A DNA stretch of 64,000 nt from an uncultured Nitrososphaerota archaeon (GCA_963799845.1 CAWCYI010000004.1:1248001-1312000); one strand, 5' to 3'. Positions 16,290 through 51,015 are shown, counted from the stretch's first letter. Translations and numbers: made by a program. The notes: generated from the letters alone by a model not told the origin.

Positions 16290-16437
16290 GTTAGCGTTTC
16301 CAGTGGAGGCCTTGTTAGCAGTTGTTCGATTAAACAGCTCAGAAGGCCAGTTCGGCATGTATTGTGTCCAGAGTGAGCGAAATATCGTACACTTTCAATT
16401 TTCTTAACGCTGCGATGGCTTCACTTGCAGTCGACAT
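16290..16437 (-). pseudogene. Possible degraded cyclase-family (kynurenine formamidase-like) N-terminal remnant
   Basis: MSTASEAIAALRKLKVYDISLTLDT, then after a frameshift MPNWPSE. The HTGTH motif was not found. Confidence 0.3.
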
Positions 16438-16558
16438 TACGGTCTTGCCTGAAATGACGTAAACCAAAAAGTATTTTGGCTCTTATTAGGCACACATATA
16501 TCAAAAGTTACCCTGAGATGACCTTTTCAGAACTCAGGGCCAAATAGTTACAGTTACT

Positions 16559-17572: not shown

Positions 17573-17611
17573 TTTTCAGTGAATCACCGATGCGGAGAGT
17601 GCGTCCTTGAA

Positions 17612-19711: not shown

Positions 19712-19740
19712 TTAAAAGTTTCTTTATTTCTCATTATATT

Positions 19741-20976: not shown

Positions 20977-22936
20977 CTGCTTTCTCTCCGGTCTTGATAT
21001 ACGAACTGAACCACCAAAGCATCAGCTGCAGTCTCTCTACTCTGTGATGGGGCTTCCCTCCCCTCGATAGTCCATGACTTTCACCGGGGAAAACAGCGAA
21101 TACGACCTCCTTGCTCTGTCGCTTCAAGAAAGCATAGAGCTGCTCCGCCTGTTCCAGCCGACAGCGAAAGTCCTCTTCAGAGTGCATGATGAGAAGCGGC
21201 GTCGTGATTTCTTTCGTGTATGAAATTGGGGATTTCGCGAGATAGTGCTCGGGCCTGTCCCACGGGAAAGAGCCCTGTACGTCTTCCTCGATTAGTCGAT
21301 AGTCGTCGCTCGTTCCGTAGAAGCTGAACAAGTTCACGACGGATCGATCTGTGACCGCTGCCGCGAACAGCTTGCAGTGGCTGATCGCCCAGTTTGTAAG
21401 ATACCCACCGTACGAACCGCCGGTCACTCCGATTCTCCTCTCGTCGATCCACCCGCTTTCCACGATATGCCCTACCATATCGATAATGTCGGAATAGTCC
21501 TTTTCCATGTAGTGACCTGTCAGTACCTTCATGAAATCTTCACCGTACCCGACCGTACCCCGAAAGTTGCACGCCGCAACCGAGTAACCAAGGGCAGCCA
21601 AGCACTGGAACTCGAACATAAACCGGTATCCCTCGGTCCCGCCTCCACCATGAATTTGGACAATACACGACGGCTTTTCTCCATTTTGTTTTCCCAAAGC
21701 CGGCATGAAAAAGCCGTGCACTTCATGACCATCCCTTGCCCTAAAAGTGAACTCGCGTAATTCACTGAACTCGATCTCGGAGATGAGGTTTGCGTTGAGA
21801 GTCGAAACCTGTTGAGGATTAGAATTCGGATGTTGGAGATACAGTTCGACCGGATGAGTAGGATCCATCCTGGTAAATGCTATCGTTCCATTGTTGGAGA
21901 GGCTGAAGCCAGTTACTACCTGTCGTCCCGAAGTGACCTCTCTTACTTCGAGAGAACCTGTATCGGCCGCGAAGATATTGCATCTGCCCCGATCAGTTGC
22001 CGTGAAATAGATTGTCTTGGAACCGCTGTCCCACACGGGTTCAAGGGTGGAACTGTTCATCATCGAGTCTGAGTAAACGCTATTCCTTGACGGCCTGTCA
22101 AGTTCGTTTGAGACGCAGAACGTTTTTTGGTTCTTGATATCGTTAACCCACACCTGAACTGGAGTATTGAACTTGAATCTGTAGTCGTCACCGATGAACG
22201 CTATGTAATTCCCATCCGGGGAATATGAGAGGCTCGACATCGATCCCTTGTTCTTTGTGAGTTTCGAGATTCCTCCACCTCCGGAGGACACGGTGTAAAT
22301 GTCCAAATTATTCTGAAAATCAGCATCCTTCTCGATGTTAGATACAAAAGCGACAGTCTTCCCATCCGGAGACAAATCGAAGGCTACAACGTCAAACTCA
22401 CCCTGAGTGACCTGCCTAATTGCTCCATCTTCCAATGTCAACTCGAATACGTGTGTCCTCCTGTCATGCAAGTATCCCTCGCCATCGAACCGGTAATTCA
22501 TGCGGTTGATCAGACGAACGTCGGTCTTCGGCGTCCCGACTCGTAGCGGATCGGAATCGGAAAGAAACAACACGGATTTTTCATCGTGCGACCATCTTGG
22601 ACTCGAGATCTTCCTTTTCTCCAACCTAAGTATCTGGCGCCTGTCCAGTCCTGCTTGATTTGAAATCCAAAGTTCCTGAGAACCGTCTGTGTTTGATGAA
22701 AGATAGAAGAAGCGATCGCCGTTTTTTGAGAAGACCGGATTTGAAACGCGATCTCCAGTCGAGATAAGTGGAATCGCACGACCATCGGCATATTTCCAAA
22801 TTGAACTTGAGTAATCGTTTGGACCCTTTGCTCGAGTTACAGTGAAGAGAATTTGCGTTCCGTCCTGAGAGATCGTCGGATCGTGGACGAAATTGAAATT
22901 GTAAATGTCTTCTGGAGTTGCTTTGCGCATTGTCAC
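20960..22936 (-). CDS. S9 acylaminoacyl/dipeptidyl peptidase
   Basis: PD40-like propeller; GGSYGG nucleophile, HSEEDFRC and FPGESHGL. Confidence 0.93.
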   Translation of the reverse strand: MTMRKATPEDIYNFNFVHDPTISQDGTQILFTVTRAKGPNDYSSSIWKYADGRAIPLISTGDRVSNPVFSKNGDRFFYLSSNTDGSQELWISNQAGLDRRQILRLEKRKISSPRWSHDEKSVLFLSDSDPLRVGTPKTDVRLINRMNYRFDGEGYLHDRRTHVFELTLEDGAIRQVTQGEFDVVAFDLSPDGKTVAFVSNIEKDADFQNNLDIYTVSSGGGGISKLTKNKGSMSSLSYSPDGNYIAFIGDDYRFKFNTPVQVWVNDIKNQKTFCVSNELDRPSRNSVYSDSMMNSSTLEPVWDSGSKTIYFTATDRGRCNIFAADTGSLEVREVTSGRQVVTGFSLSNNGTIAFTRMDPTHPVELYLQHPNSNPQQVSTLNANLISEIEFSELREFTFRARDGHEVHGFFMPALGKQNGEKPSCIVQIHGGGGTEGYRFMFEFQCLAALGYSVAACNFRGTVGYGEDFMKVLTGHYMEKDYSDIIDMVGHIVESGWIDERRIGVTGGSYGGYLTNWAISHCKLFAAAVTDRSVVNLFSFYGTSDDYRLIEEDVQGSFPWDRPEHYLAKSPISYTKEITTPLLIMHSEEDFRCRLEQAEQLYAFLKRQSKEVVFAVFPGESHGLSRGGKPHHRVERLQLMLWWFSSYIKTGEKAVECPI

Positions 22937-22961
22937 AACCTCTCAACCACCGAAAATATAC

Positions 22962-23900
22962 TCATCGACGCAATCGAGGATCTAAAATGTCTCTCAGCCC
23001 GTCACCGACGAGATTGAACGCAAGTGTCGCGATTATTATCGCCAGTCCGGGGAAAATGATCAGCCAGGGTGCCGTGAACACATTCTGAATCCCCTCCGCC
23101 ACCAAATTTCCGAGCTCGGGCAAGTTTTGTTTTGGCGAGAATCCTAGAAACATCAAGCTCGAAAAGATGAGGATCACTCCTCCGAGGTCCAGCGTAGCCT
23201 GTACCAGAATCGGGTACATTGAGTTGGGAATGATGTGCCTGAACAAAATGCGCGGAGTGCTAGCGCCCATCGCTCTCAACGATTCGACATAGTTTTTCTC
23301 CTTCTCTGAAAGTATCTGACCACGAACTAGCCTCACGTAGAGCGGCCACCACACGATTAGCACCGCGAAAGTTAGAGTCGGAATACTCGGCCCGACAACA
23401 GCTGCAATAACAAGCGCGAGAAGTAGCGTCGGGAAACCAAAAAAGATGTCAGTGATCCTGAGAATAATTTCGTCTATTACCGAACCTCCGTACGAGGAAA
23501 GTGCGCCAAGAACTATACCTATCGCGACGGAGCCCAAGACTACGGTAAAAGCGATCTGAAGATCGAGCGGGAGCGCGAGCACTATCATGGAAAGCACTCC
23601 TCGCCCGAAATAGTCCGTTCCAAGCCAGTAAAACTGGTTGCTACTGCAAAGAGATGAGTTAGGACCCCAATTTATCCAGTGGTTTCCCCAACAAAGCTGG
23701 GTGGCGTACGAGACTTTGTTAGCAAGTGCCGGGTTCACAATGAAATGGGAAAGAAGCGCGATTACTATAATTCCGATGCTCAATATCGAACCCACCAGAA
23801 CTAGCGGATTTCGGACCAGCAGTCTGAGGGCAAACTTCAGATCGTCCAGTCGTCGATAGTTTCGCGGCTTCTTGCTCTTTTCTTCGACTAGTTTGCTCAA
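22962..23900 (-). CDS. dppC: Peptide ABC permease DppC/OppC
   Basis: LGTDYFGR, YVESLRAMGAS (EAA loop), FNLVGDGLRDILDPR. Confidence 0.92.
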   Translation of the reverse strand: MSKLVEEKSKKPRNYRRLDDLKFALRLLVRNPLVLVGSILSIGIIVIALLSHFIVNPALANKVSYATQLCWGNHWINWGPNSSLCSSNQFYWLGTDYFGRGVLSMIVLALPLDLQIAFTVVLGSVAIGIVLGALSSYGGSVIDEIILRITDIFFGFPTLLLALVIAAVVGPSIPTLTFAVLIVWWPLYVRLVRGQILSEKEKNYVESLRAMGASTPRILFRHIIPNSMYPILVQATLDLGGVILIFSSLMFLGFSPKQNLPELGNLVAEGIQNVFTAPWLIIFPGLAIIIATLAFNLVGDGLRDILDPRLRR

Positions 23901-24938
23901 CTTAATCGTATCCTTGGGTCAATAACCCCGTAGAGCAGATCGACTGCGAGGTTCGCGATCACGATGATCGCCGCAGACACTATCGTGTAGAGCATGAGAA
24001 AGTTGGTATCATTGGCAAAGGTCGCCTGAAGCGCGGCAGAACCGACTCCCGGCCAGCTGAAAACATATTCTACGACGACAACGCCTCCCAGAAGTGATGC
24101 AAATAGAACTCCAGTCACGGTTATCACAGGAATTAGAGCATTCCTCAGTGCATGCCGGTAGGTTACTACTCTTTCTGTAAGTCCCTTAGACCTCGCAAGT
24201 ACTATGTAGTCCTGCTTCAGGACTTCGAGCATGCTTGATCTCACGATCCTCGTCAGGTATCCCAGGCTGGCGAAAGCCAGCGTGATCGCGGGTAAAATCA
24301 GATGAGTAAGTGAACTTACAAAGTACCGATCCGTTCCCTTCGATGATTGCATCCAGAATAGGTAATCCCGTTATCGGATGTACGGAGTTGATGAAACTCT
24401 GGCTTACGTAACCGGAGCTCGGGAGCGTGGGTAGCCCCCACAGCTTGAAGTAATATGAAAATAATAGCTGAAACAGGAAACCGAGCCAGAATACCGGCAT
24501 CGAGTATCCCGAGAGTGCGAAGAGCCTCGAGATGTGATCCGGAAGTTTGTTATTTCTTGTGGCTGAGAGGATTCCCAGGGGGAGTGCCACCACGATCGTT
24601 ATGATTATCGAAGCGATTGCAAGTTCTACTGTCAGGGGGAATCTGTCCTTGAAGACCGTAATCGTCGCCTGATTTCCCGCCCACTTCGAAATTCCCCAGT
24701 TGCCGGATGCGGCGTCTCTGACCCAGTAAAAGTACTGCTCGTACAGCGGCAGGTTGAAGCCGTGAATTTGCTTGATGTAATTAATCTCCGCAGTGCTCAT
24801 GGAGAGAGTTACGTACTGTCCCCAGGGAGGAAATTTCGAAGGATAGCCACGTGATAGATAGAAGACAATGAGGCTGATACCAAAAAGTACCAGTATCATG
24901 AGTAAAAGTCTTCTAATCACGAACTTTGCGAAATTCAA
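23897..24938 (-). CDS. dppB: Peptide ABC permease DppB/OppB, +1 frameshift near 24325
   Basis: FVIRRLL and RFPLTVEL in the first frame; HLILPAITL, ARSKGL and DLLYGVIDPRI in the second. Confidence 0.9.
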
Positions 24939-25106
24939 AACTGATACGTCGCGCGATGAGAATTATCAAGTTGTTATTTAATTGTCCTCCGATCCTGCGC
25001 CAACTACTGAAATGATTTCTGAAAATATTTTCATGATTTGCAAGTCAATCAAGAAAGCATGGCGTGGTAACAACACATTTTAGGAGACCGGCGGGGCTTT
25101 TGTTTC

Positions 25107-27164
25107 ATGTTTTCAAGAAAATCTAAAATCAAACAGGCGATCGGTAGGACAGCGCTTGTTGGTATAGTCGTTATAATTATCATCATAATAGCAGTAGGCG
25201 GTTATGCGGCTCTTTCTATCGGAAAGACCAGCAGTTCAACAACTACTTCCACTACGTCTTCGGTGAGCACGACCACGAGTTCCACTACATCGATTGGTTC
25301 GACTACCACAACTTCCAGCACACTGAGCACCAGTCAAAGTTCCACATCAAGCACGACTTCGTCTCCTTCAACTACCTCTTCAACAACCTCGACCACGGTA
25401 GCAACCTCTAGTTCACAGTCCGTCCAAAATCCCGGAGTTATTGTATACGAAACTTCAAACCAGCCGTCGTCATTAGATCCCGCCCTCTGGTCTGACGCCG
25501 GATCTGCGACGATTCAGTTCAATGTGTATGAGACTCTCTTCCAGTATGTTGGCAACGTAAGTTCGCAGGTCGAACCGTGGCTTGCTTCGAATTACACCGT
25601 TTCACCTGATGGTTTGACTTACACGGTTAATCTGAGACAGGGCATAACATTCCAAGACGGTTCGCAGTTTAACGCGAGCGCAGTTGTATTCAGTTTTAAC
25701 AGAGTCGTCCTGATGGATTCGTCATCGTCAAACGTCTGGATCCTCGTCGGGTCTCAAGCCCCCGGTTTGATTAATGGTTCATTCAACTACAGTCATAATT
25801 TTGGGTCGGGAGCAGCGACATACAACCAAAGCCAAGTTAACGCCTACCTCGCCTCGGACGGAGTGCAGGTTGGAGCTAATCCTTACCAAGTGATATTTCA
25901 TCTAGGATATGCTGATGCTTCATTTCCATACATACTTGCCCTAACTGCCGCTAGTATAGTGTCACCGAGTTTCGTCATCTCTCACTGGAGTGCTCCGACA
26001 GATGGACATGGATACATCACCGGAGTCAACGCAGGCGACACCGACCCGTACATGAACAATCACACATCAGGGACGGGTCCCTATGAAGTCAAGAGCTGGG
26101 ATCCCACGACTGGCGACGTCGTTTTAACATCTTATTCTCAGTACTGGGGCTCTCCATCGAATACAGGAGTCGCAAAGGTTCCCGAAATCGACCTGAACTT
26201 TATCCAGAGTGATTCCGCGAGAGTGCTCGATCTAAAGTCCGGCGCCGCTGACATTGCAGATATTCCCACCAGCGACAACTTTGCCTTCTTTGACAAGACC
26301 ACATGGTTGACAAATCACCAGATTCAGATAACCGCCCCCGGCGTTTCCGTTATCGGGCCCTTCCCGCAGCTAAACATCGAATACATCGGGATGAACTTTG
26401 CAATCCACGATCCCAACGGCTCGCTGTCTTCTTTCCAGCCGTTCGCGAACAAGAACTTTAGACTCGCGATGGCCGACGCAATCAACATCACTGATATACT
26501 GCAGAATGCCGCGTCGGGATTTGGAATAACAGCTGACAGCGCTGTCCCGCCCGGCCTTGGAGGATACAACTCCTCCGTTCCCGTAGACTATAACTTCAAT
26601 CTGACGGACGCGCAGGGAAACCTCACAATCGCTTCAAATGCACTCGGCTTCAATTCGAGCAACCCACAAACGCTCACAATGGTATACGCGATCGGCGACA
26701 GCACCGGACAGGCCGTATCCACGGAACTAGCGACTAACATCAATAACATGGCACTGGGCATTACGATAAACGTCTCGCCACAGCCGATTAGCCAGTTCCT
26801 GGGTGGGGTCGTCGCGAGAACGATACCAATGTTCGTTCTTCAATACTTGGCGGACTATCCAGAGACGACCGACTTTCTGTCCGCCTTTGGAAGTGCAACT
26901 TCTAATGTAGGATTCTTCGTGGGTTACAACGACACGCACGTAACCTCGCTAATCAACCAGCAAGCGAGCGGAGGCAACGCAACTCTAAGGGCACAGCTCA
27001 TAAATCAGGCCGAAATAGCGATGAACCAGGACGTTCCGTATATCTGGCTATACTATCCTTCAATATTCGGGGAGACTGGACAGATGTTCAGAAGCTGGAT
27101 CAGCGGATTCCAGTTCAACGCTGCGTATTCGGGGCCGTACTTCTACGAGCTGTCCAAGGGATAA
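25107..27164 (+). CDS. ABC family-5 solute-binding protein, close paralog of 17612-19711
   Basis: Same architecture; shared blocks QSDSARVLDLKSGAADI and FGETGQMFRSWISGF. Confidence 0.92.
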   Translation: MFSRKSKIKQAIGRTALVGIVVIIIIIIAVGGYAALSIGKTSSSTTTSTTSSVSTTTSSTTSIGSTTTTSSTLSTSQSSTSSTTSSPSTTSSTTSTTVATSSSQSVQNPGVIVYETSNQPSSLDPALWSDAGSATIQFNVYETLFQYVGNVSSQVEPWLASNYTVSPDGLTYTVNLRQGITFQDGSQFNASAVVFSFNRVVLMDSSSSNVWILVGSQAPGLINGSFNYSHNFGSGAATYNQSQVNAYLASDGVQVGANPYQVIFHLGYADASFPYILALTAASIVSPSFVISHWSAPTDGHGYITGVNAGDTDPYMNNHTSGTGPYEVKSWDPTTGDVVLTSYSQYWGSPSNTGVAKVPEIDLNFIQSDSARVLDLKSGAADIADIPTSDNFAFFDKTTWLTNHQIQITAPGVSVIGPFPQLNIEYIGMNFAIHDPNGSLSSFQPFANKNFRLAMADAINITDILQNAASGFGITADSAVPPGLGGYNSSVPVDYNFNLTDAQGNLTIASNALGFNSSNPQTLTMVYAIGDSTGQAVSTELATNINNMALGITINVSPQPISQFLGGVVARTIPMFVLQYLADYPETTDFLSAFGSATSNVGFFVGYNDTHVTSLINQQASGGNATLRAQLINQAEIAMNQDVPYIWLYYPSIFGETGQMFRSWISGFQFNAAYSGPYFYELSKG

Positions 27165-28604: not shown

Positions 28605-29754
28605 ATGAACAAAACGACGATAGATCGGCTGAAGACTGAGCTGGATTCAAGGTTTAGGCGGTTAGTGGAATGGTTGAATGAAAACGGCCTCGATTACGCA
28701 GTGATCCTGAAAGAGGAGATCGAGGTACAGAGCGGGAATTATCTGTATTATGGCGGAGCCCTCATGTCGGGAGAGTACGGCGCCATTGTCGTTGATTCTT
28801 CTGGAGAACGCTCAGCGATAGTTCACGAATATTCGTTCGAGAGGGTGAGAAATTCATGGCTCTATTCCGGAGTGTTTGAGATCAGGCAGTCAATCGAAGA
28901 GCTGATAGCAACTCTGCGCAAACTCGTGAAAGATTCCAATACAGCAATTGACAGCAGCGCGACACAGAATGCGACGAATCTGCTTAGATCAAGCGGGATC
29001 AATATGTCTGACAAGAATCTCAGGGAGTTTGTTTTTTCTCAACGCGCGACAAAAAGCGAGTTTGAGGTTCACGAGATGGAAACAGCGATCGGGATCGCCA
29101 AGAGAGCTCTTGATAGGACGGTTCACAGTTTCAAATCAGGCATTACCACAGAAGATATCTCCCGTTCGCTGAATAAGAATATCCTGGACGAAGGCGGCAT
29201 AGGAACCTCGTTTGAGACCGACGTGAGGATCATACGGGGTTTGAGCGAAGCTCAAACGAGAAAACTTGCCAAAGGCGATCTTGTTCTATTCGATTTTGGA
29301 GCCAAACTTTCCTCAATGTATTTGTCTGACGTCGGTCGGACGATTCCATTTTTGCCAGATAGAGACCACAAGATTAGAGACTTCATGAATGATGTCTATT
29401 CAATCAAGCGAGCCGGATTTAAGAAGATACGTAAGTGGACACACTGGAAATCAAGTCCGTGCAGAAATCGATCAAGTAATTCATGAACATGGCTATGATT
29501 CGACTCACAGGCCGGGGCATCAAATTGGTCTGAATGTACATGAGCCGTTCGGGCCGGCGCTCGCGTATGGAGCAGAGAACTCGGGACAGCTTCGGGAGGG
29601 AAACGTTGTGACCTGGGAACCAGGGATTGGGCTTGCCAAGAATAAAGAGAAGTTGAACAAGAATCGGTATGGTATGGCTCACATGGAAGACATGGTACTC
29701 GTTGGCACTCCTTCGAAGATGCTCGGGAATTTAAAACTCGAATTCTCGGAGTGA
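28605..29754 (+). CDS. M24 Xaa-Pro aminopeptidase/prolidase, +1 frameshift near 29433
   Basis: DLVLFDFG, YLSDVGRT, HRPGHQIGLNVHE, TWEPG and HMEDMV motifs. Confidence 0.9.
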
Positions 29755-32146: not shown

Positions 32147-32521
32147 TTACGTTGTAGAACTTGGACCTGAAACCTCATAAGAAGTCGGTCCCTTTCCAAT
32201 GCTAAATATCAGGACCAGAGCTTCTTCGCGGTTTGGATTTACGTCGCGATGCACGAGTTCAGGGGGAATCAGAAAGAAATCACCCCGAGATAGAATGGCA
32301 CGCTCTTGACCATTTTGGCCGAACTCAATGTTCGCTTTCCCGGACATAATGTATCCGTACATGGTACGTTTTCCATGATGATGCCAACCACCGGTCGTTC
32401 CTCCACTAATTCGAACCTCTCCGACATGATCAGAGTCTGACTCGAAGATCGGTCGCGAATCGAAACCCTCTTTGGTTTTACCTCGTTCCTGTTCGGGATG
32501 TACGACTTGAATCTTATCCAT
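32147..32521 (-). CDS. Cupin domain protein
   Basis: GWHHHG...GDFFLIPPELVHRDVN. Confidence 0.88.
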   Translation of the reverse strand: MDKIQVVHPEQERGKTKEGFDSRPIFESDSDHVGEVRISGGTTGGWHHHGKRTMYGYIMSGKANIEFGQNGQERAILSRGDFFLIPPELVHRDVNPNREEALVLIFSIGKGPTSYEVSGPSSTT

Positions 32522-33145: not shown

Positions 33146-33253
33146 CGGCTCAGGATTATCTGATATTTAGTTCTAAGGTTTGAAATCAGGTTTCGATTTG
33201 CGAAACACTCTCGAAATAAGTTCAAATTCGACATTGGGCTCTTTTGATCACTA

Positions 33254-33560
33254 ATGATAATCAGAGAGTCGACGATCTTCAGATTCCAATGGGCTCAGGG
33301 ATTGTTATGCTTCATACTACGACGAACGCGAAGACAATCCCTATTTTGGTCTCACCATCCGACCGAAGAAACCGACAATCGGCGAAGGCCAGGAATGGTT
33401 CTCGAAATTCTACCAAGGAATTCTGGAAGGCAATAATGTTGGCGTGGTTGCAGAAGAAGGCTCGCGCATTATAGGATTCTGCGGAATTCAAAGAATAGGC
33501 ACCAAGTCTGAAGTGTCGCACAGAGCAGATCTGGGAATTTCTGTCAGAAAGGAAATATAT
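33254..33560 (+). pseudogene. Truncated GNAT acetyltransferase
   Basis: MIIRESTI, frameshift, then ...VAEEGSRIIGFC...HRADLGISVRKE. It ends before the GxG acetyl-CoA loop. Confidence 0.65.
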
Positions 33561-33575
33561 CTTCGTGCAGGGGCT

Positions 33576-34007
33576 TTAACCGCCTGCATAGACGGGAATC
33601 AAATCGACTTCTGTCTTGTCTTGAAGTAGTGGATTATCCTGTGTGGGGACACCATTCACTACTATTTGCATCACTGGAAGCATCGCAGCAAGTACCACAT
33701 GTTCCTGTTTTACTTGACCCAGAACATCATCAAGATACACGGGAGAAGGTAGCGTAAAATACTCTTCCTTAGTCCGGGTCATTTGAGTAGACATTCCAAA
33801 ATAAACTATCTTTATTGTGATAGATCCAGACTGAACTGCTTGCTTGCTATTATCATTGCTATTGTCTTCATTTTCTTGTGACCCTTCTTGTCCTTGCGAA
33901 AAGCCGAGAAGCGCGGAACTCCCCAGAGCTACTAGACAAATGCCACCCGAAATTAAGATAAGTCTTTTTAGGGCACTTCTTCGACTCGGGCGGGTTTCTG
34001 ATGACAT
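33576..34007 (-). CDS. MoaD/ThiS/SAMP-like ubiquitin-fold protein with an N-terminal twin-arginine-like signal or anchor
   Basis: SRRSALK plus hydrophobic helix; IKIVYFG...IVVNG...LQDKTEVDLIPVYAGG with terminal GG. Confidence 0.8.
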   Translation of the reverse strand: MSSETRPSRRSALKRLILISGGICLVALGSSALLGFSQGQEGSQENEDNSNDNSKQAVQSGSITIKIVYFGMSTQMTRTKEEYFTLPSPVYLDDVLGQVKQEHVVLAAMLPVMQIVVNGVPTQDNPLLQDKTEVDLIPVYAGG

Positions 34008-34082
34008 TGAAATCCACATTATCTGATTAGTTTTATGACGAATTGTCTGAAGGAAACTAGGAGAAAGCAAACTCCTCCGTAT

Positions 34083-35468
34083 TTAGCCGGATTCCACAAT
34101 CACAGTTCCTTTCATCCAAGGATGGATGCTGCAATGATAGGCGTAAGTTCCCGGCGTCGTAAACGTATAGCTCCAAGTCTGTCCTTGGTTTAGAAATCCT
34201 GAATCAAACGAACCGTCGTCTGCAGTTACAGTGTGAGTTGCATCATCATTGTTTGTCCAGGTGACAGTGTTGTTTACACCGATCACTACTGTTATCGTCG
34301 TAGGTGAGTAGTACGTGGTTGTGGAATTCACTGCCGATCCCGACTGAATACTAACGGGGACTCCTGGAGCGCCAGATGTTGTCGTCAAGCCAGCAGAAGT
34401 GGAACTTGAGTTCTCAACTTTGAACACCCCAACTGCTCCCGCCTGCGCGTAAGCAAAAGCATGATTCACAAAAGGATTCAACCCGCCTGCATCTGGGAAG
34501 TACATATCAACTATGGCACCCCCGGCTGGAGGTATACTTAGAGTCTGTAATCCATGTTCTACGTTGAACGGATTCCCATCGATATAGACAGTATCCATTA
34601 TTCCACCTATGACGTGAAATGCCTCCCACAGATTGGGGCCCTCGTTGAAGACGTAAAGCCGAACCAACTCGTTTGGATTCACGACTAGCGGATTTGATTG
34701 ATACTGGAAGGCTCTCCCGTTAAAAACTACGTAATCGGGCGTCGCGGCTAGCATCTTCGTATAATTGCCGGTGTAACTACCGTCAGTGCTAGGCTGGGCG
34801 TTCAAATAAAATTCGCTTTCTATCAGCACGTAGGTTCCGCCGGGTGCAGGTGGTAAAGCCCAGCTTCCGGTTCCGTTGACGATTATGACTCCATACATCC
34901 CGTTGGCGATATGCTCCAAGACAGGTGGAACACCGCAGTGATACATGAATATCCCTGGATAGGCAGGGGTGAAGTTGAACGAGAGTGACTTGCCCGGCAA
35001 GACGGGCGCATAGACGGCAGCCCAGTTAACCTGAGCCGCGTGGAAATCTATCGAGTGAGCCATCGTGTCGTTGTTGATTAATGTGAATTCAACGTTCTCA
35101 CAGAGTGTTACCCAGATCGTGGGTCCCGGGATGGTTCCGTTGAAGCTCCAACCGTCGTATGTAACATTGTTCGCAATCTCAACTTTCGCTCTTTCGGCGA
35201 TGAGCGTAATCTTTGTGCTTCCGGCTTGAGAGTTGCAGACTGGTGTCGGGTAACCTTCCGACTGGACACCGCCCGCTTGATGTGTCGTTGTTACTGTTGT
35301 AGTAGATGCCACAGGGCTAGAACTTGAAGTGGTTGATTGGTTCTGTGCGGTCTGCATGTTGGAGTAAATTCCTATGACTCCAGCCCCTAGAATAAAGGCG
35401 ATCGTAACCATAGAGATCGCAACAACGTTTGCAACTGCAATCCTTCTCTTACTTTGGATATCGTTCAT
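34083..35468 (-). CDS. nirK: Copper-containing nitrite reductase with N-terminal TM anchor and fused C-terminal plastocyanin-like domain
   Basis: HSIDFH, YHC...HIANGMYG, FHVIG and VNHAF ligands; C-terminal THTVT...YHCSIHPWMKG. Confidence 0.88.
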   Translation of the reverse strand: MNDIQSKRRIAVANVVAISMVTIAFILGAGVIGIYSNMQTAQNQSTTSSSSPVASTTTVTTTHQAGGVQSEGYPTPVCNSQAGSTKITLIAERAKVEIANNVTYDGWSFNGTIPGPTIWVTLCENVEFTLINNDTMAHSIDFHAAQVNWAAVYAPVLPGKSLSFNFTPAYPGIFMYHCGVPPVLEHIANGMYGVIIVNGTGSWALPPAPGGTYVLIESEFYLNAQPSTDGSYTGNYTKMLAATPDYVVFNGRAFQYQSNPLVVNPNELVRLYVFNEGPNLWEAFHVIGGIMDTVYIDGNPFNVEHGLQTLSIPPAGGAIVDMYFPDAGGLNPFVNHAFAYAQAGAVGVFKVENSSSTSAGLTTTSGAPGVPVSIQSGSAVNSTTTYYSPTTITVVIGVNNTVTWTNNDDATHTVTADDGSFDSGFLNQGQTWSYTFTTPGTYAYHCSIHPWMKGTVIVESG

Positions 35469-35680: not shown

Positions 35681-36177
35681 ATGTTGACTACACCACCATC
35701 GCTGACAGAAGAGCACGAAGAAATCATGGGTTCGCTAGATGAGTTCTCAAGACTTCGAGACGAGACCGGAAAGTCAGTAAAGGAACTTGTAGATGTATTA
35801 GAGCCGCACTTTGGGAAGGAAGAGAGACTAGCGATGCCCGTGCTCGGAACGCTGTCGGAGCTAGTCTCAGAAGATCAAACTTCTACAAATCTTAGAGCAA
35901 TAGCCGAATCGCAGGCTGCTCTTCGGGAGGAGTACGACAACATGTTTGTGGAGCATGCAGAGCTTAGAACATTCATTCAGAATGCTGGAAGATTCGCGAA
36001 GCAGGAAGATTCGCGAAGCAGGAAAATCATGAAGATGTGGTTGACCTGCTGGATGCACTTTCCCATCATGCCAGAGTCGAGGAAGAAGTCCTATACCCCG
36101 CGGTGATGCTCGCGGGGACCGTCGCAAAATTCCTACTGCATTCTGAAGAAGATAGACAAATTCATGAAGTGACGTAA
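35681..36177 (+). CDS. Hemerythrin-like protein interrupted by a 17-bp tandem duplication
   Basis: EEHEEI, HFGKEE and VEHAEL; after removing one GGAAGATTCGCGAAGCA copy, HHARVEEEVLYP. Confidence 0.8.
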
Positions 36178-36185
36178 AATTACTT

Positions 36186-36881
36186 TTGAGCACATTTTCT
36201 CCCTTCAAAAGATGTATTATGCCCCACTTCCCTAACAGACTTGTGCTTGAAGTCAAGCTCCTAGTTGAGGCGCCCAAGGATTGGATCAAAGAAGTCAATC
36301 GAGGTCATTCCGCATTTGTCAAGATTACTGACATCAGGAGCTCGGGCACGTCTCGAGCCGTACAGAACTTTGTCGAGATTTCTTCCCCAAAGATCGGAGC
36401 TGACGAGCTGATTAAGGCGATCAGCGCCTCAAAGGACATCAAGGATGTGGACTTGGTTCGCCTAGATCCACACCGCATTGTCGGGATGATAACTACTCAG
36501 GACTGTCCAGTCTGCTCGACTCTTTCGGGCTTGAATTGTTCGATGCTTTCTGCCTCAACTAGGGACGATGGAAAGATGGAATGGAAAGTATTGATCAGCG
36601 GAGAAGACACTCTGAAGAAGATAACAGTGAGACTGGAAGCTAATCGGGTGTCTTACAAGATTCTTGGACTCACGCACCTTACAGCAAAGAACGATCTAAC
36701 CGCAAGGCAGGAGTACATAATCAAGATTGCTTTTGAACTCGGATACTTCGAGTTTCCGAAAAAGATAAAGCTTGAGGAACTCTCAACTAGGCTAGGAATT
36801 TCGCCCGGAACACTTTCCGAAATACTGAGAAGAGCTGAAAAGAACATCCTTTCCAAGTACTTCCGAGGCCATCACGAGTAG
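36186..36881 (+). CDS. Bat/HTH_10-family transcriptional regulator with a Cys cluster
   Basis: LTARQEYIIKIAFELGYFEFPKK...LSEILRRAEK; CPVC...C. Confidence 0.88.
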   Translation: MSTFSPFKRCIMPHFPNRLVLEVKLLVEAPKDWIKEVNRGHSAFVKITDIRSSGTSRAVQNFVEISSPKIGADELIKAISASKDIKDVDLVRLDPHRIVGMITTQDCPVCSTLSGLNCSMLSASTRDDGKMEWKVLISGEDTLKKITVRLEANRVSYKILGLTHLTAKNDLTARQEYIIKIAFELGYFEFPKKIKLEELSTRLGISPGTLSEILRRAEKNILSKYFRGHHE

Positions 36882-39369: not shown

Positions 39370-40494
39370 ATGATGAGAAATAAGAGTAAGAAGATTATTC
39401 GAAGAAGTATGAGTAGCAATTGCGTAATCGCAGGAATTGACCTGGGCGATAGTAGCAGCCTTGCAACCGTTCTCTCTCCAGTCGGAGAGATCGCAGACAG
39501 GTTCTCCTTCCAGATGGATGAAGCGGGGTACGCCCTGTTCTCAGACAGAATTCCAAGGGATGCGAGGTTAGCTTTTGAAGCTACCAGCTCGGCATATCCG
39601 TTCTCAAGAATGCTCAAGGAACTAGGATACCACGACATAACTGTAGCTCATCCTACTGAACTTGCCTGGATCGTCAGATCAAAGAAAAAGAATGATAGAG
39701 CTGATAGCTTAAAGATAGCCAAGCTCCATCTAGCGGGTCTGTTGCCCGAATCTCATCTTTTGGCTCAAGAGGAGCAGATAGAAAGAGACCTCTTGATTCA
39801 GAGGGTAAAGCTCGGATCAGAGATAGGTAAAATCAAGAGCAGAATCATAAGCTATCTCAAGAGGGAAGGAGTGTTCGAATCTCTCCCGAAGAGCAAAGAT
39901 AACTTCTCTGCTAGAAGGAGGGTTGCAATCGCCTCAATGAAATTCAACGATGACAGAGACCTCGTGCTGAAAACCATGGTTGAGAGACTCGAATTCATGG
40001 AGAAGCAGTGCGAGCCGTTGGAGCAGAGGATAATGAAGAACGCGAAGGACAACAAATACGTCAGGATGATAATGTCTATTCCTGGCATAGATTACTACCT
40101 CGCTTCGCTATATTCTTCGTACATCGGAGATCCACACCGCTTTCCGTCTTTTGATCACGTCGCAAGCTTCCTCGGGATAATTCCAGAGAGCAAGGATAGT
40201 GCAAACGTCAGGAGGAGAGGAAGAATGTCCAAGGACGGACCTTCCATTGCGAGATGGGCTCTGGGCATAATGACCGACACGGTGCTGCTCTACAATCCGA
40301 ATATCAAGGTATACTACAACGGCGTCAAGCAGAGGACGGGTCGCGGGAGCTACGCCCATGTGCTAGTGATGAAGAAGTTAGCTCGCATGATCCATCACAT
40401 GATGATTACGGAGGAGAACTACAAGTGGGAGAACGAGGCGCTAACAGAAGCAAAGATCTCAAGACTCGATGCCGCTGGAGGTGAATCAGCCTAG
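39370..40494 (+). CDS. IS110-family DEDD recombinase/transposase
   Basis: IAGIDLG, AFEATS, KNDRADS (DEDD); SIPGID and LGIIPESKDS. Confidence 0.95.
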   Translation: MMRNKSKKIIRRSMSSNCVIAGIDLGDSSSLATVLSPVGEIADRFSFQMDEAGYALFSDRIPRDARLAFEATSSAYPFSRMLKELGYHDITVAHPTELAWIVRSKKKNDRADSLKIAKLHLAGLLPESHLLAQEEQIERDLLIQRVKLGSEIGKIKSRIISYLKREGVFESLPKSKDNFSARRRVAIASMKFNDDRDLVLKTMVERLEFMEKQCEPLEQRIMKNAKDNKYVRMIMSIPGIDYYLASLYSSYIGDPHRFPSFDHVASFLGIIPESKDSANVRRRGRMSKDGPSIARWALGIMTDTVLLYNPNIKVYYNGVKQRTGRGSYAHVLVMKKLARMIHHMMITEENYKWENEALTEAKISRLDAAGGESA

Positions 40495-43450: not shown

Positions 43451-43792
43451 TTGAAAGGAATCGCTCAGCTTCACCCGACCGAAGCGACCGCAATAAGAGC
43501 GGGGAGTGTAGTTCCAAGAGCTCAAGAGCAGTTTCTACGCATCCCGATCAACGGCGACAAATTTCAAAAGCCGCTAGGAAGGGTCTACATTATTCCAGAT
43601 AGATGCAAGGAATGCAACTACTGCTGGACCTTCTGCCCGAATGAAGTCCTAGAATTATCAGATGAGATAAACGCTAACGGGTACAGGCATCCAAGGGTCA
43701 AACAAGGCAAGGAGAACGATTGCGTTAACTGTGGCATGTGCACCTGGGTCTGCCCGGAGTTTGCGATATTCGTAGTTGAGGTGAAACCATGA
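43451..43792 (+). CDS. korD: 2-oxoacid:ferredoxin oxidoreductase delta subunit (2x[4Fe-4S])
   Basis: [12 protein letters not shown] and [12 protein letters not shown]. Confidence 0.85.
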
Positions 43793-44949
43793 GCCAGTAT
43801 GCTGAAAATGGTACTCTCATACCCGGGGACTATTTTTTGATGGGTAACTTTGCGTGCGTCGAAGGCGCGATAATGGCGGGTTGTAGATTTTATGCTGGTT
43901 ATCCGATCACTCCCTCCTCGGAAATCTTTGAGAGAGCAAGTACTAGATTCCCACAGGTCGGTGGTTACGCGGTTGAGATGGAGGATGAGATTGGAAGTGT
44001 GGCCGCTTTGATTGGGGCATCGTATGCCGGTGCGAAAGTGATGACCGCCACATCAGGTCCTGGCTTTAGCCTAATGATGGAGAATATCGGCCTTGCTTAC
44101 ATGATGGAAGCTCCGCTGGTCATTGTAAACGTCCAGAGAGCCGGCCCGAGCACAGGCATCGCAACCCTGGTCGGTCAGGGAGACATGATGCAGTCAAAGT
44201 GGGGTACTCATGGCGATGTCGAGACCATTGTGTATTGCCCTAACAGTGTTCAGGAGTTCTTTGACCTGACAATCCAGGCATTCAATTCCGCGGAAAAGTT
44301 CCGTACACCAGTCTTCATAATGGCAGATCAGGTGATTGCGATGATGTGGGAACGCCTTCGGATCCCGGGACGAGAGGATATCGAAGTTAAGCAACGAGTA
44401 GTCCTTGACCCGAAGGTGTTGGCTGGTCAACTGCCGTTTGACTATTCAAAGGACTTTCTTCCCATGCCAATCGCAGGGACGGGCTGTAAGGTAAACATTG
44501 ACAGTTTGACACACGATTCTAGAGGCTATCCGAGCATTGATCACTCTGTCTCTGAGATCTTGACAAGACACCTCGTAGGAAAAATCGCTGACCACGCCCG
44601 CGAGATATGGAAGTGGGAGGAGTTCCTCCTGGAAGATGCAGAGGTTGCGGTTGTTTCCTACGGATGTTCGTCTCGCTCGGCCCTCAGAGCTGTGAAGATT
44701 GCCAGATCAAGAGGAATCAAAGCGGGTCTCCTCAGACTAATTACTCCCTGGCCATTTCCGGACGAGATAATCGAGAGAGTAAGCAGCAGGGTCAACACGC
44801 TTGTTGTCGCGGAGATCAACTACGGTCAGCTTGTCCATCCAATTCGAGAGCACTCAAGATGTCCAGTTGTCGGGGCAAACTGGGCGCCAGGAACACTGAT
44901 CGAGCCTAGTGCAATACTCGATGCTTTGCAGGTGGTGGTTCCGAGTTGA
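43789..44949 (+). CDS. korA: 2-oxoacid:ferredoxin oxidoreductase alpha subunit
   Basis: [20 protein letters not shown] and QRAGPSTG motifs. Substrate not determinable. Confidence 0.92.
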
Positions 44950-45839
44950 CCCAGTCCCTGTTGCCGGTTGGCGGGCCGGAGATCAAGACAGAATCTCACC
45001 AATGGGATCAGCTGATTCGCTCTGAGAGATTCCCGAACATCTGGTGTCCTGGCTGCGGAATAGGAATCGTTCTCTCCTCCTACATCAACGCTGTCCACAA
45101 GTCATTGATTCCCCCGGAAAAGCACGTCTGCATTTGTGGCATTGGATGCACGGGAAGAGTTGCCGGCTATCTCAATCTTGATTCATACCACACGACCCAT
45201 GGAAGAGGAATCGCCTTTGCAACCGGTATGTCGGTGATCCGGCCTGACCTTGAGATCACCGTAGTCGCCGGTGACGGCGACATCAGCACTATTGGTGGAA
45301 ACCACCTGATTCATGCAGCACGGAGGAACGCCGACCTCAATGTAATCATGGTGAACAACCTAAACTACGGAATGACTGGCGGACAACACGGAGCGACAAC
45401 TCCGCTAGGAGCAAGGACTCACACGTCTCCCTATGGAAACGTCGAATCTCCATTCAATGTCCCCTACCTTGTCTCAGCTGCTGGAGCTTCCTTTGTCGCC
45501 CGCTGGACAACTATCCATGTGAGGCAGCTGTTTAGGGCAATCAGGCGTATGATGGAGATAGAGGGCTTTGCATTCCTCGAAGTTATCTCTCCATGTCCCC
45601 CAACTTTTGGAGAGTTCAACAACTATCCTGAAGCTTTGGACATGATGAAGTACTTCAGGGACAAATCGGTCGTGGACGACGACGCTGATCTCAGGGATAT
45701 TACAATAACTGCACATCCCGAAGATCCGATAGTTGTGGGGAACTTTGTTGACAGGCGCAGGCCTTCTTACCAAGAATTACTGGGCGGTCTACTAGAGAAA
45801 TCTTCGGAGAAAAGTGTACGGGGAGGCGCTAGCAAGTGA
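44946..45839 (+). CDS. korB: 2-oxoacid:ferredoxin oxidoreductase beta (TPP) subunit
   Basis: WCPGCG, GIGC, HGR, GDGD...NN.NYGMTGGQ and SPCP motifs. Confidence 0.93.
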   Translation: MTQSLLPVGGPEIKTESHQWDQLIRSERFPNIWCPGCGIGIVLSSYINAVHKSLIPPEKHVCICGIGCTGRVAGYLNLDSYHTTHGRGIAFATGMSVIRPDLEITVVAGDGDISTIGGNHLIHAARRNADLNVIMVNNLNYGMTGGQHGATTPLGARTHTSPYGNVESPFNVPYLVSAAGASFVARWTTIHVRQLFRAIRRMMEIEGFAFLEVISPCPPTFGEFNNYPEALDMMKYFRDKSVVDDDADLRDITITAHPEDPIVVGNFVDRRRPSYQELLGGLLEKSSEKSVRGGASK

Positions 45840-46399
45840 GGCGGGAAATCAGGATAACTGGACTCGGTGGTCAGGGCGCCATAACCGCCGGACACATCTT
45901 GGGCAGGGCGGCCTCGATTTATGATCGAAAGGAGGCAGTGATGACCGAAGGATACAGCCCTTACATCACAGGAGGGTGGTCGAGAGCAGATCTCATCATC
46001 TCGGATGATCCGGTAGATTTCCCTCTCGTATCGAGCTTGGATGTCCTAGTTGCAATGTATCAGGAGGGACTGGAAACAAACCTGAAAATGGTGAAGCCAA
46101 ACGGGATTGCCATCTCGGAAAGCAGACTCGCAAGAACCTTCGCGGCAAATCAAACTGAGAGACGGAGAGTCCTTTCGGTTCCTGCAGTCGCAGAAGCTGA
46201 GAGGCTCGGGAAGAAGATGCTGACAAACGTTTTGATGTTGGGATCTCTCGAAGCAATCGCTCCCGTCGTAAATCTTGACTCGCTGAAAAAAGCGTTGGTT
46301 GACAGGTTTCCCAAAGCGGCCGAACTCAACCTCAAGGCAATCGACGCCGGATATGAACTTGGACTCAAGGCAACCACGGAGTTGAAGATCGTTGGTTGA
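45836..46399 (+). CDS. korC: 2-oxoacid:ferredoxin oxidoreductase gamma subunit
   Basis: GLGGQG, TGGWSRA and NVLMLG motifs. Confidence 0.9.
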   Translation: MRREIRITGLGGQGAITAGHILGRAASIYDRKEAVMTEGYSPYITGGWSRADLIISDDPVDFPLVSSLDVLVAMYQEGLETNLKMVKPNGIAISESRLARTFAANQTERRRVLSVPAVAEAERLGKKMLTNVLMLGSLEAIAPVVNLDSLKKALVDRFPKAAELNLKAIDAGYELGLKATTELKIVG

Positions 46400-49300
46400 A
46401 GAAGACTCGAACACAATACTCGTGATCGGCGGTGGGATAGCAGGGATACAGGCTGCCCTGGATGCAGCACACGCCGGTGCTAGAGTCTCCCTAGTTGAAA
46501 AGGAAGCAACGATTGGGGGAAAAATGTCGGTTCTTGACAAAAACTTTCCCACGCTTGACTGCTCGATCTGTATAGAGTCTCCGAAGATGAGTGATGTCGG
46601 ACTGCATCCAAACATAGAACTACTCACCCTTTCCGAACTTCAGAGTCTTGAGGGCGAGCTCGGAAACTTTAGGGCAACGATAATGCAGAACCCAAGATAT
46701 GTCACTGACGCCTGTACAAGGTGTGGAGAGTGCGTACCAGTCTGCCCAATTGTTTTGAAGAGCGAGTTCGACGTCGGAATGTCCGCAAGAAAGGCAATCC
46801 ACACGCCGATAGAGCAGTCAGTGCCGGGAGCTTACGTTATCGATTCCAAGAATTGCCTCAACAAGCCGCCCAATTTCCTACCCTGCAGTAGGTGCATGGA
46901 CGCCTGTGGGCCAGATGCGATCGACTTCAACATGAGGCCGAAGATCCTCCAAAGGAAGGTTGCCTCTGTGGTTGTCGCAACAGGCTTTGACATGCTTGAT
47001 CCCCTGATGCTTCCGCAGTTTGGATATGGAAAGCACCCGGACATTCTTACCTCGATGGAACTCGAACGTTTGCTCCAGGCGTCTGGTCCGAGCCTGGGCG
47101 AGGTCGTGAAACCTTCCGACGGAAGACATCCGAAGAACGTTCTGTTCGTCCTCTGCGTCGGCTCAAGGGACCAGAGATTCTGCAACTATTGTAGTAGAAT
47201 CTGCTGCATGTACAGCATCAAGGAAGCATACCAGCTGAAGGATCACGGAATCGAATCTGTTGACGTTGCGTACATGGATATCCGAGCGTACGGAAAGGGA
47301 TTCGACGAGTTCTACGACCGAACAAGAAACTCCGGAGTAAGGTTCGTTAGGTCAAAGCCCGCAAAAGTCGTTTCAAATGGCAAGAATCTGAGCGTTTTCT
47401 TCGAAGACACGGAATCAGGTACATCTGGGAAGATCAAGGAGGACTATGACATGGTTGTCCTTGCCACTGCAATCATTCCCCCAAAGAGCACAGAACAGCT
47501 GAAGCAAGGTTCTTGGAGCCGAACTTGCCTATGATGGCTTTTTTGAGACTCGCGATGAGTCTGGAGATTTCGTAACAAGCACTAGAAACGGTGTCTACCT
47601 CGCTGGTTGCGCCACGGGACCTAAAGACATACCCGACAGTGTTCTCGAAGCAGGTGCAGCAGTCTCAAAAGCCCTAACTCATGTAAAGCATAGATCATGG
47701 CCTGAAGCCGCGCCAGTAGTTCAACTCGAGTCCGAAGGTGAACCGAGGATCGGAGTCTTTGCTTGTCACTGCGGTTCAAACATCGCAGGCACCGTGAACA
47801 TCCCAGAGCTTGTCTCTTTCGCAAAGACGCTTCCAAACGTAGTACATGCCCAGGACCAAAAGTACTCCTGCGCAGCGAATACGCTCAACGACATTAGTGG
47901 TGTCCTCAAGGAGAAGAAGATTAACAGAGTGGTAGTCGCAGCATGCTCGCCAAAGACTCACTATTCCACATTTCAAGGCTCGCTAAACAGAGCGGGACTA
48001 AACCCCTACCTCTTGGACATGGCGAACGTCCGCAACATGGATTCCTGGGTACACAAGGAGGACAAGGAGGGAGCGCTCAGGAAGGCAAAGGACATGGTGA
48101 AGATGTCAGTGCTCAAAGCCCTAAACATGAAGCCACTTGAACCGATGAAGTTTCCGGTTACCCAGAAGGCGCTTGTCATCGGCGGCGGAGTGGCCGGAAT
48201 CGTTGCTGCGACAAACCTAGCTTCCCAGGGATTTGAGACGCATCTCGTAGAAAGAGCCGAAAAGTTAGGCGGAGTCCTCAACGAATTGAAGGAAATCGCC
48301 CCGCTCGGGATCAAATCTAAGGATCTTCTTGACATTCTTCTAAAGGAATTGAAAGAAAGCGGAGCGATATTACACCTAAACAAGAAGATCGAAAGTATCG
48401 GAGGTTTTGTTGGAAACTACGACATACAGCTATCGGATGGAACCTTGCTGAAAGCCGGAGCTGTTGTGCTTGCCACGGGGGCTCAGCCCTACTCCCCAAA
48501 CGAACTTGATTACCACAAGAATCCCAACGTCCTTACTAGTCTCGAACTTGAAGGAATCGCGGATAACATCGATTCAAAGAACGTTGCAATAATCTCCTGC
48601 ATCGGTTCGAGGAATGAAAAACTAGGTTGCTCAAGGTTCTGCTGCCAGACCATGATAGGTCAGGCAACCAAGCTCAAGGAAAGAGGAAACAACGTAACGG
48701 TGCTCTACAAAGACCTGAGGTCTTTTGCGAGATTCGGCGAAGAAGAATACGAAAAGGCGTGCAGGACTGGCGTCAACTTCGTTCAATATCCGCAGAGCTC
48801 CCTCCCGGAGCAGTCTATCAAGCTTGATTCAAATCACTTGATCGTGAAGGACGAACTCCTCGGCGAAGAGCTTGAGATTCCCGCGGACCTCGTGGTCCTC
48901 AATGTAGGGCTCTCTCCAATCAAGGAGGAGGGCGGAGTGATCCAGCAACTCAAGGTCTCAACCGATCAAGCCGGCTTTACTTTGGAAAGCCACCCCAAGC
49001 TCGGACCGGCAGAGTCGATGGTCCAGGGCGTTTTCCTCGCGGGAACAACTCAATATCCAAAGAGCGTGAAGGAATCAGCAATCCAAGCACTTGCAGCAGC
49101 GGCAAAGGCCTCGTCAATAATCTCAAGGGATGAGATTGAACGCGAACCTTTTGTCGCCGTTGTAGACCCTCTGAAGTGCACAAAGTGCGTTAGGTGCATT
49201 CCCGTCTGCCCATACAACGCGATCAGAGGAGAGCTCGGCAAGAGGATCGAATTCATCACTGCGATGTGCCAAGGTTGTGGAACCTGCGTCGCAGAGTGCA

Positions 49301-49842
49301 TGGTCGAGAGTGCCCTAACCCAGGAGGGTTTTACAGATCGACAGATCATGGCCCAGATTGACGCGGCGCTCTCGGAAGAAGCTTCAAAGAAGGTTCTCAT
49401 CTTCGCTTGTAACTGGTGCTCATACGCAGGAGCCGACCTGGCAGGAGTGATGAAGATCCAGTACCCATCGAACACCAGAATCATTCGAACGATGTGCTCC
49501 GGCAGGGTATCACAGAAGCTCATGCTCTACGGATTTGCAAAGGGAGCCGGTGCAGTACTCGTAACGGGATGCCATCCGGGCGACTGCCACTACATCAGCG
49601 CAAACCAGCAGACGCTCAAGAGAGTCGAAAGGTGGAAGCATCTCCTGAAGACGAGAGGGGTTAATCCCGACAGGCTCCAGCTATGGTGGGTGAGCGCCGC
49701 CGAGGGTAAGAGGTTTGCCGAGAAGGCGAGGGAGATGGATGAACTGCTGAAGCACCTCCCGAGTGAGGAACTGGAATCAACCACCCTCAAGATCAAGGTT
49801 GCTTCGAGAAGTCCTCCGACAGGAGTAGGCGCAAGGAGTTAG
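46392..49842 (+). CDS. hdrA: Large HdrA-like flavoprotein (two FAD modules, ferredoxin inserts) fused to an MvhD-like [2Fe-2S] domain; +1 frameshift near 47502
   Basis: GGGIAG, DKNFPTLDC, CVGSRD...CSRICC, CHCGSNI, AACSP, GGGVAG; C-terminal FACNWCSY, MCSGRV, GCHPGDCHY. Deleting one A fuses the two ORFs (about 1150 aa). Confidence 0.9.
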
Positions 49843-49852
49843 TGACGAGCTA

Positions 49853-51010: not shown

Positions 51011-51015
51011 AGAAA

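Follow-up and report, generated by a model that had tools for sequence, protein, structure and literature searches.

A MoaD-fold protein with a predicted twin-arginine signal, encoded beside nirK in a soil archaeon: a candidate accessory of extracytoplasmic copper enzymes

The nirK locus and its small downstream gene

The window, a stretch of 64,000 nucleotides from an uncultured Nitrososphaerota archaeon (GCA_963799845.1 CAWCYI010000004.1:1248001-1312000), carries on its minus strand an intact open reading frame of 143 amino acids, P0001 (Table 1), in which a Tat-type motif, a hydrophobic run, a linker and a MoaD/ThiS beta-grasp domain follow one another. The ATG lies at 34007, the Gly-Gly codons occupy 33579-33584, and the stop codon (33576-33578) directly follows the C-terminal sequence IPVYAGG. 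An earlier reading of the sequence alone had described this frame with its strand and coordinates, and had placed it co-oriented about 75 nt behind the nirK stop. Each part that it described is present, and the spacer measures 75 nt on the same strand.

Table 1. Features of the nirK-P0001 region, in window coordinates.
Feature	Position	Strand	Remarks
Cupin_2 protein	32147..32521	-	downstream; cupin also in L010, L016, L017
P0001 gene, Tat-signal MoaD/ThiS-like protein	33576..34007	-	stop codon included; homologues share the start site
MoaD/ThiS beta-grasp, residues 63-143, codons	33579..33821	-	contains M72, H103, M109, M113 and terminal G142-G143
Linker, residues 37-62, codons	33822..33899	-	acidic, Asn/Ser/Gln-rich; E41-S62 after the uncharged run
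h-region/membrane anchor L16-F36, codons	33900..33962	-	uncharged run extends to Q40
Twin-arginine motif S8-R-R-S-A-L-K14, codons	33966..33986	-	R9 and R10 at least 90% conserved in close homologues
nirK-P0001 spacer, 75 nt	34008..34082	-	from nirK stop (34083-34085) to P0001 ATG
Membrane-anchored NirK fused to C-terminal cupredoxin, P0002, 461 aa	34083..35468	-	directly upstream of P0001
Hemerythrin HHE-domain protein	35681..36106	+	divergent from nirK; family also beside nirK in L010, L016, L017
HTH_10 regulator with CPVC...C motif	36186..36881	+	Pfam HTH_10 4.6e-19; conserved cluster member

Within the spacer a weak stem-loop can be drawn at 34060-34078, and terminator-like sites in the scan were no more numerous than in shuffled sequences. 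A GNAT pseudogene considered at 33244-33629 (+) was rejected, having no Pfam support. In run X3, one DNA contig from a related strain (depth 2.7) is a base short at position 34010, immediately 5' of the ATG, and differs at two bases nearby (34034-34037); if real, this would speak against a longer form initiated further upstream, at 34019 or 34070.

P0002 matches TIGR02376 (2e-54), an amicyanin-like domain (2.4e-18) and the NirK structure 3x1e (1.4e-58). Its residues H138, D141, H143, H177, C178, H186, M191, H285 and H336, which we take to be the catalytic Asp and His and the type-1 and type-2 copper ligands, do not vary across 56 orthologues, and neither do the positions of the C-terminal cupredoxin that we presume to be copper ligands. 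Judged by its sequence, the upstream gene is a genuine NirK. Its N-terminal anchor has no conserved arginine pair and is followed by a Ser/Thr-rich linker comparable to that of P0001. Contigs identical to parts of nirK occur in two peat metatranscriptome runs; none covers P0001, and these runs are uninformative on its expression.

The order of genes recurs in related DNA. The upstream gene is readable in seven of ten metagenome loci, and in six of these (L008, L009, L010, L014, L015 and L016, of which the last two scored identically and may be one lineage) it is a multicopper oxidase/cupredoxin of the NirK-cupredoxin type. In the seventh, L011, the partner is preceded by an anchored 209-aa protein with a C-x3-C...M motif, and its weak CuA/cupredoxin matches (Pfam COX2, 0.0012; NosZ C-terminus, 3.8e-4) suggest that a second subfamily follows a CuA-like cupredoxin. 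A genome from another family of the class (G153) has the same order of nirK and partner, with an interrupted partner copy, and in genome G063 a run of N directly follows nirK. Seven more pairs of NirK and partner have, pair by pair, equal longest-contig sizes (8149, 21798, 9604, 3678, 2668, 219677 and 91375); since these sizes match in independent listings, we infer that each pair lies on one contig. No copper gene adjoins the paralogue found in L003 and L005. The link to nirK is recurrent yet not universal, and the concern, voiced with the original observation, that it might be unique to this genome is removed by six of the seven readable loci and by G153.

Other neighbours recur less strictly. 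The HTH_10 regulator is 69% identical to its counterpart in L016 and could be the metal or NO sensor of the cluster. The hemerythrin and cupin neighbours recur at the family level only, their pairwise similarity being not significant. Neither MoaE, MoeB nor any Moco gene was found in the window, and the related loci hold one Oxidored_molyb gene, 3 kb away in L016. Two of these loci encode, after the partner gene, a polytopic membrane protein of 434-471 aa (L008, 835-2250; L016, 5514-6818; 42% identical) with conserved His in predicted helices. Its assignment as NnrS-like found no support, as neither Pfam nor NCBIfam gave a match, and the protein was not found in the window or in the genome to which the window belongs.

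Elsewhere in the window, an M24 peptidase is split over two overlapping frames (28605-29754, +; profile positions 2-128 and 127-206) by a frameshift or an assembly error, and an ABC permease gene (BPD_transp_1) is broken into a pair of overlapping ORFs (23897-24938, -). At least two frameshifted genes make assembly errors possible in this window; P0001 itself is intact. Around the split permease lies a peptide-uptake cluster (13772-27164) with three SBP_bac_5 proteins and S9 and M20 peptidases. An IS110-family transposase (39370-40494, +) and IS630-like pieces (HTH and DDE_3; 5999-7017, +) are also present. The region 43451-52823 (+) encodes 2-oxoacid:ferredoxin oxidoreductase subunits, an HdrA-like/FlpD fusion, an HdrB/C-like CCG protein and electron-transfer flavoproteins, a set that is unusual for the better-known ammonia oxidisers of the phylum.

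Fold, export signal and distribution of the family

The only Pfam match of P0001 is to ThiS (PF02597 family), at 23.8 bits (cut-off 22.5), with residues 68-143 covering profile positions 2-76 of 76. Against NCBIfam moaD (TIGR01682) the protein scores 24 bits, far under the equivalog cut-off of 66.15. A profile of 81 full-length members, compared with solved structures, retrieved MoaD-family proteins only (1vjk, 2.3e-12; 6jbz_B, 2e-11; 6jc0_C, 1.5e-7; human MOCS2A, 5mpo, 1.8e-6). These HMM matches to ThiS and to solved MoaD proteins bear out the beta-grasp assignment made in the sequence-only reading.

MoaD, ThiS, SAMP and Urm1 are textbook cytoplasmic proteins, whose Gly-Gly needs ATP-dependent activation. 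With MoaD (PF02597; PDB 1vjk, 6jbz, 5mpo, 1fm0) the P0001 family shares the beta-grasp by profile match, a YF(G/A) strand, an HP motif after helix 1 and a C-terminus of the form D/E-V-x-x-x-P...GG. MoaD differs in being cytoplasmic and signal-less, with MoeB and MoaE as partners, whereas the P0001 family combines a predicted Tat signal and a linker with a Met/His signature and has copper enzymes as neighbours. SAMP1-3 and Urm1 are likewise beta-grasp proteins with a free Gly-Gly, and the genome of P0001 encodes a Ubl-E1 fusion; SAMPs are cytoplasmic, however, no conjugation machinery lies near P0001, and the SAMP1 and Urm1 models gave E-values of 0.1 or worse in a relative. By sequence P0001 is a MoaD-fold protein, yet it falls short of the MoaD equivalog cut-off, and neither the cytoplasmic location of MoaD, as far as prediction goes, nor its link to Moco genes applies to it.

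The motif SRRSALK with 25 uncharged residues behind it (L16-Q40) is the combination of twin-arginine motif and uncharged h-region by which Tat substrates are recognised, and it fits the TatP-type pattern RR.[FGAVML][LITMVF] as quoted in the available text of PMC2758597. Close homologues (11 clusters, 48-73% identical) retain the arginine pair, ALK, LISGG and the terminal Gly-Gly; L18 and G22 never vary in them and S20 and A27 rarely do, while the linker varies in length and sequence. The TatP-type pattern occurs within the first 50 residues of 130 of the 214 collected family sequences, and among the 163 with at least 125 aa it is found in 123 and the Gly-Gly end in 155. Among the first 119 sequences, 54 have no Tat-like N-terminus; 22 of these 54 were flagged for a hydrophobic stretch near the N-terminus and many of the flagged ones start inside the h-region, which suggests mis-called starts or cut contigs. 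In NirK orthologues of the same lineages the pattern appears in only 6 of 56, though their N-terminus is basic and an anchor is present. We interpret this as an indication that the arginine pair of the small protein is specifically selected and is not a mere positive-inside flank.

Codon substitution patterns agree with a translated and constrained signal region: compared with three relatives, dN/dS is 0.19-0.29 in codons 1-38, 0.47-0.54 in the linker and 0.12-0.16 in the beta-grasp. Across the 4.6-Mb genome 9503 frames reach 100 aa or more, and only 5 of them have a strict Tat motif with h-region near the N-terminus: P0001, two proteins of Rieske type, one solute-binding protein and one protein of 106 aa. 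The genome also encodes TatC (G000:C6:1535515-1536198, 143.6 bits). On this conservation, the MoaD-fold beta-grasp of the family is preceded by what appears to be a genuine twin-arginine signal or signal anchor. The export-type signal first noticed in P0001 is therefore upheld, RR, h-region and terminal Gly-Gly being jointly conserved among homologues, and a start behind the hydrophobic segment is contradicted by the purifying selection on the N-terminal codons.

The five positive charges before the hydrophobic stretch (R6, R9, R10, K14 and R15) and the acidic linker after it predict an N-in, C-out topology. We consider it highly probable that the protein is exported by Tat and then tethered or, in relatives with AxA sites, cleaved. 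After folding in the cytoplasm, P0001 would be carried across the membrane by Tat and stay tethered on its outer face, and relatives with AxA sites would be cleaved free. In several relatives the h-region is shorter and is followed by AxA-type sites, so some family members are probably released by cleavage; the protein of the window may stay tethered. The uncleaved Tat anchor of Rieske proteins offers a parallel, with an arginine pair and then a membrane-spanning h-region tethering a domain folded in the cytoplasm (the host Rieske has SRRNFLK). Rieske proteins differ in that they need Tat because of their Fe-S cluster, and no cofactor is evident in P0001.

We also have to consider that the N-terminus is an anchor of a protein facing the cytoplasm, or that P0001 is simply a cytoplasmic MoaD whose start was called wrongly. 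The fusion of two clusters of the family to UspA, a cytoplasmic type of domain, would fit such a protein, but unfused P0013 is closely related to the fused forms. The charge distribution, AxA-type cleavage sites in several relatives, purifying selection on the N-terminal codons and a conservation of the arginine pair that far exceeds the needs of an anchor all speak for export, and we regard a cytoplasmic location as very improbable.

The architecture of signal, linker and beta-grasp with an exact Gly-Gly end is retained at identities as low as about 25-30%. In a tree built from the beta-grasp domain, 65 signal-bearing and 18 signal-less rows are split at one branch (SH-aLRT 87), and this split, on 85 columns and at low resolution, is consistent with a single gain of the signal. 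Source labels of members include Nitrososphaerota (P0017), Bathyarchaeia (P0262) and the acidobacterial MAGs Terriglobales (P0063) and Acidoferrales (P0273), though bins may be wrong. NirK orthologues are labelled Nitrososphaerota, Nitrososphaerales or Thaumarchaeota, and the DNA of the window is found in soil metagenome runs. The source organism is a Nitrososphaerota soil archaeon and not a haloarchaeon, so Haloferax could be used for heterologous expression only.

The signal-bearing form is rare in reference genomes. Matches were found in 5 of 61 related genomes, these including a signal-less AOR-linked copy (G004) and a decayed copy (G011), and few of the 301 genomes of the class have the signal-bearing form. 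Among 400 phylum-wide genomes it was found in none but the window's own; the sample gave otherwise signal-less MoaD matches only, many of them in frames of about 230-260 aa. Scans of genome contigs with alignment A1 gave no match, and with P0063 as query they returned ordinary MoaD C-termini only. A literature search found no exported MoaD/ThiS protein, and the accessible parts of broad surveys of Ubl proteins in prokaryotes and archaea nowhere use the term "signal peptide". Source annotations give members no name other than "MoaD/ThiS family protein" or "molybdopterin converting factor small subunit", and such labels probably mislead when pathways of archaea from soil and peat are reconstructed.

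Further subfamilies exist. Two related genomes (L003, L005) encode a paralogue that keeps the architecture and has Asn instead of H103, and a third subfamily (L012) adjoins ZIP-like and CBS genes. A decayed copy of the latter subfamily, covering residues 95-143 with one TAA, is present in the genome of the window (G000:C4:323324-323470; L064 7324-7470, -); it likewise adjoins ZIP-like and CBS genes and lies near a cytochrome b, a Tat-signal Rieske protein and a NosD-like beta-helix protein. Another ThiS-family gene is located 2.7 kb from tatC on contig C6.

The terminal Gly-Gly and the Met/His cluster

Gly-Gly forms the exact C-terminus in 199 of the 214 family sequences, and most of the exceptions look like fragments. 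P0001 (ending in VYAGG) was rightly described as Gly-Gly-terminated, and most of its homologues are so as well. A family that sends a MoaD fold through Tat and yet keeps this end raises the question of what role a ubiquitin-like C-terminus could have where there is no ATP.

One answer would be activation before export: a Ubl-E1 would adenylate and thiocarboxylate the Gly-Gly, or conjugate it, and Tat would then export the folded and modified protein for sulfur delivery or tagging. The exact Gly-Gly is the strongest point in favour, as it is generally lost from beta-grasp relatives in which E1 has dropped out of use, and export by Tat permits a prior ATP-dependent step in the cytoplasm. The genome does encode ThiS and ThiF E1 domains in one 529-aa open frame, about 500 kb away (G000:C4:773777-774832), an architecture reported for Thaumarchaeota in the available text of PMC2948915. 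Two relatives (P0006 and P0266; 66-69% identical) read through past the Gly-Gly into a complete UspA domain of cytoplasmic type, with a junction that is alike in both clusters (GG-SSQFEF-SKIL...). Such forms would need cutting at the Gly-Gly, like Ubl precursors. An unfused near relative exists (P0013), and we take the fusions to be apparent stop-codon losses.

The strongest point against prior activation is the neighbourhood: E1, MoaE, JAMM and rhodanese are absent among the window ORFs scanned against Pfam and from every neighbourhood examined, as had been noted for E1 within the window. We know of no need of NirK or cupredoxins for sulfide, and a literature search gave no precedent for an extracellular thiocarboxylate or Ubl conjugate. 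We consider activation followed by sulfur delivery or tagging unlikely, and the SAMP-like tagging or sulfur delivery proposed in the sequence-only reading found no supporting observation, with no E1-pathway genes in the neighbourhoods examined.

A second conserved feature, missed by that first reading, is a cluster of Met and His residues in the beta-grasp. In 128 signal-bearing members M72 (96%), H103 (97%), M109 (98%) and M113 (98%) are near-invariant, and additional Mets accumulate at positions 71, 106, 110 and 114, up to the sequence HPSMKQMMQMM in some members. The Met content of the domain is 6.4%, about three times the 1.9% of 12 cytosolic MoaD-like proteins of the phylum, and 21 of the 86 columns account for 87% of all Mets. 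In proteins outside the cytoplasm, motifs rich in Met and His are a usual mark of Cu(I) binding, and the cluster suggests copper handling. The four residues lie in two short segments that, by analogy with the Leu8 loop and the Ile36 patch of ubiquitin, should flank the base of the C-terminal tail.

The same residues can be read as a surface for binding protein. P0001 would then be an exported structural or regulatory partner of NirK-cupredoxin without metal or C-terminal chemistry, its Met-lined surface and Gly-Gly tail forming a docking face only. Met-rich surfaces also serve flexible protein recognition, and the linkage to nirK is the same as under copper handling. Cytosolic relatives have hydrophobic residues at positions 109 and 113, and the partner evolves faster than its neighbours, being 40% identical to its L016 homologue compared with 69% for the regulator and 74% between NirK and its L015 orthologue. 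However, it is Met itself, and not any hydrophobic residue, that is kept at 96-98% at three positions, together with a His, and paralogues exist without adjacent NirK. A purely structural or regulatory partner appears to us rather unlikely.

A possible role outside the cell

The observations point to a previously undescribed helper working outside the cell. The reading that we favour, with a probability of roughly 0.4, is that P0001 is a Tat-exported or tethered accessory of cupredoxin-type enzymes, most likely handling Cu(I) for NirK-cupredoxin. In view of the conserved signal and the recurrent link to nirK, we retain as best reading what was suggested when the gene was first noticed: a MoaD-like protein, exported or tethered to the membrane, that partners an extracytoplasmic copper enzyme. 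That the protein is a dedicated accessory partner of cupredoxin-type copper enzymes is probable from its conserved neighbourhood.

As NirK-cupredoxin has an ordinary non-Tat anchor, it must acquire its copper outside the cell. There, M72, H103, M109 and M113 of P0001 would bind Cu(I) and help to load the three copper sites of NirK-cupredoxin, and the flexible Gly-Gly tail would act as a docking or delivery arm, similar to the MoaD tail entering MoaE. Among mechanisms, Cu(I) handling seems the likeliest by analogy, and we propose it tentatively. The L003/L005 paralogue, with Asn at position 103 and no adjacent copper gene, the UspA-fused P0006 and P0266 and the interrupted copy in G153 run counter to it, and the MoaD fold is, to our knowledge, unrelated to any copper chaperone. 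M109 and M113 may also be partly buried: cytosolic relatives have Leu at both positions, and in some relatives that lack the signal Met is already present there. Copper handling alone also does not explain Gly-Gly as the exact C-terminus, a feature typical of E1 substrates. The copper supply of archaeal extracytoplasmic enzymes, such as the cupredoxins and NirK of Nitrososphaerota, is poorly known, and P0001 offers a concrete candidate; models of PCuAC, Sco and CopC had no match in the window's genome (86.7% complete).

The closest working analogue of the role proposed for P0001 may be MelC1 of Streptomyces, a Tat-signal helper that loads copper into tyrosinase according to the available text of PMC2758597 and PMC6312201. 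As described there, this "caddie" of tyrosinase is a small protein with a Tat signal, encoded beside an extracellular copper enzyme that needs it for the insertion of copper. Its fold is unrelated and has no Gly-Gly end; moreover, melC1 lies upstream of the enzyme gene and the signal-less enzyme hitchhikes, whereas NirK carries an anchor of its own. Periplasmic Met/His Cu(I) proteins such as CusF, CopC/PcoC and PCuAC (PMC7558416 and PMC11840665, in their available parts) are, like P0001 by prediction, small and extracytoplasmic, with Met-rich motifs plus His. Their folds are different, and P0001, whose only Pfam match is ThiS, shows no homology to CusF, CopC or PCuAC.

SoxY is a Tat-exported sulfur carrier with an Ig-like fold and a flexible Gly-rich C-terminal arm, which carries sulfur on the Cys of its GGCGG. 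P0001 resembles it in the predicted Tat-type export and flexible Gly C-terminus, and differs in that its mature domain has no Cys and ends in Gly-Gly.

Finally, C-terminal chemistry and copper might be combined. The Gly-Gly would be thiocarboxylated by the cytoplasmic Ubl-E1, the protein exported by Tat, and the thiocarboxylate together with three Met thioethers and the His would form a Cu(I) site that matures enzymes of the cupredoxin type, NirK among them. Outside the cell this would be an acid-stable site, all-sulfur apart from the His. A literature search found no link between thiocarboxylates and copper, and we hold this combination to be distinctly improbable. It would, on the other hand, jointly explain the Tat signal, the invariant Gly-Gly, the Met cluster and the copper-enzyme neighbours and, if true, would be the first case of ubiquitin-like C-terminal chemistry outside the cytoplasm.
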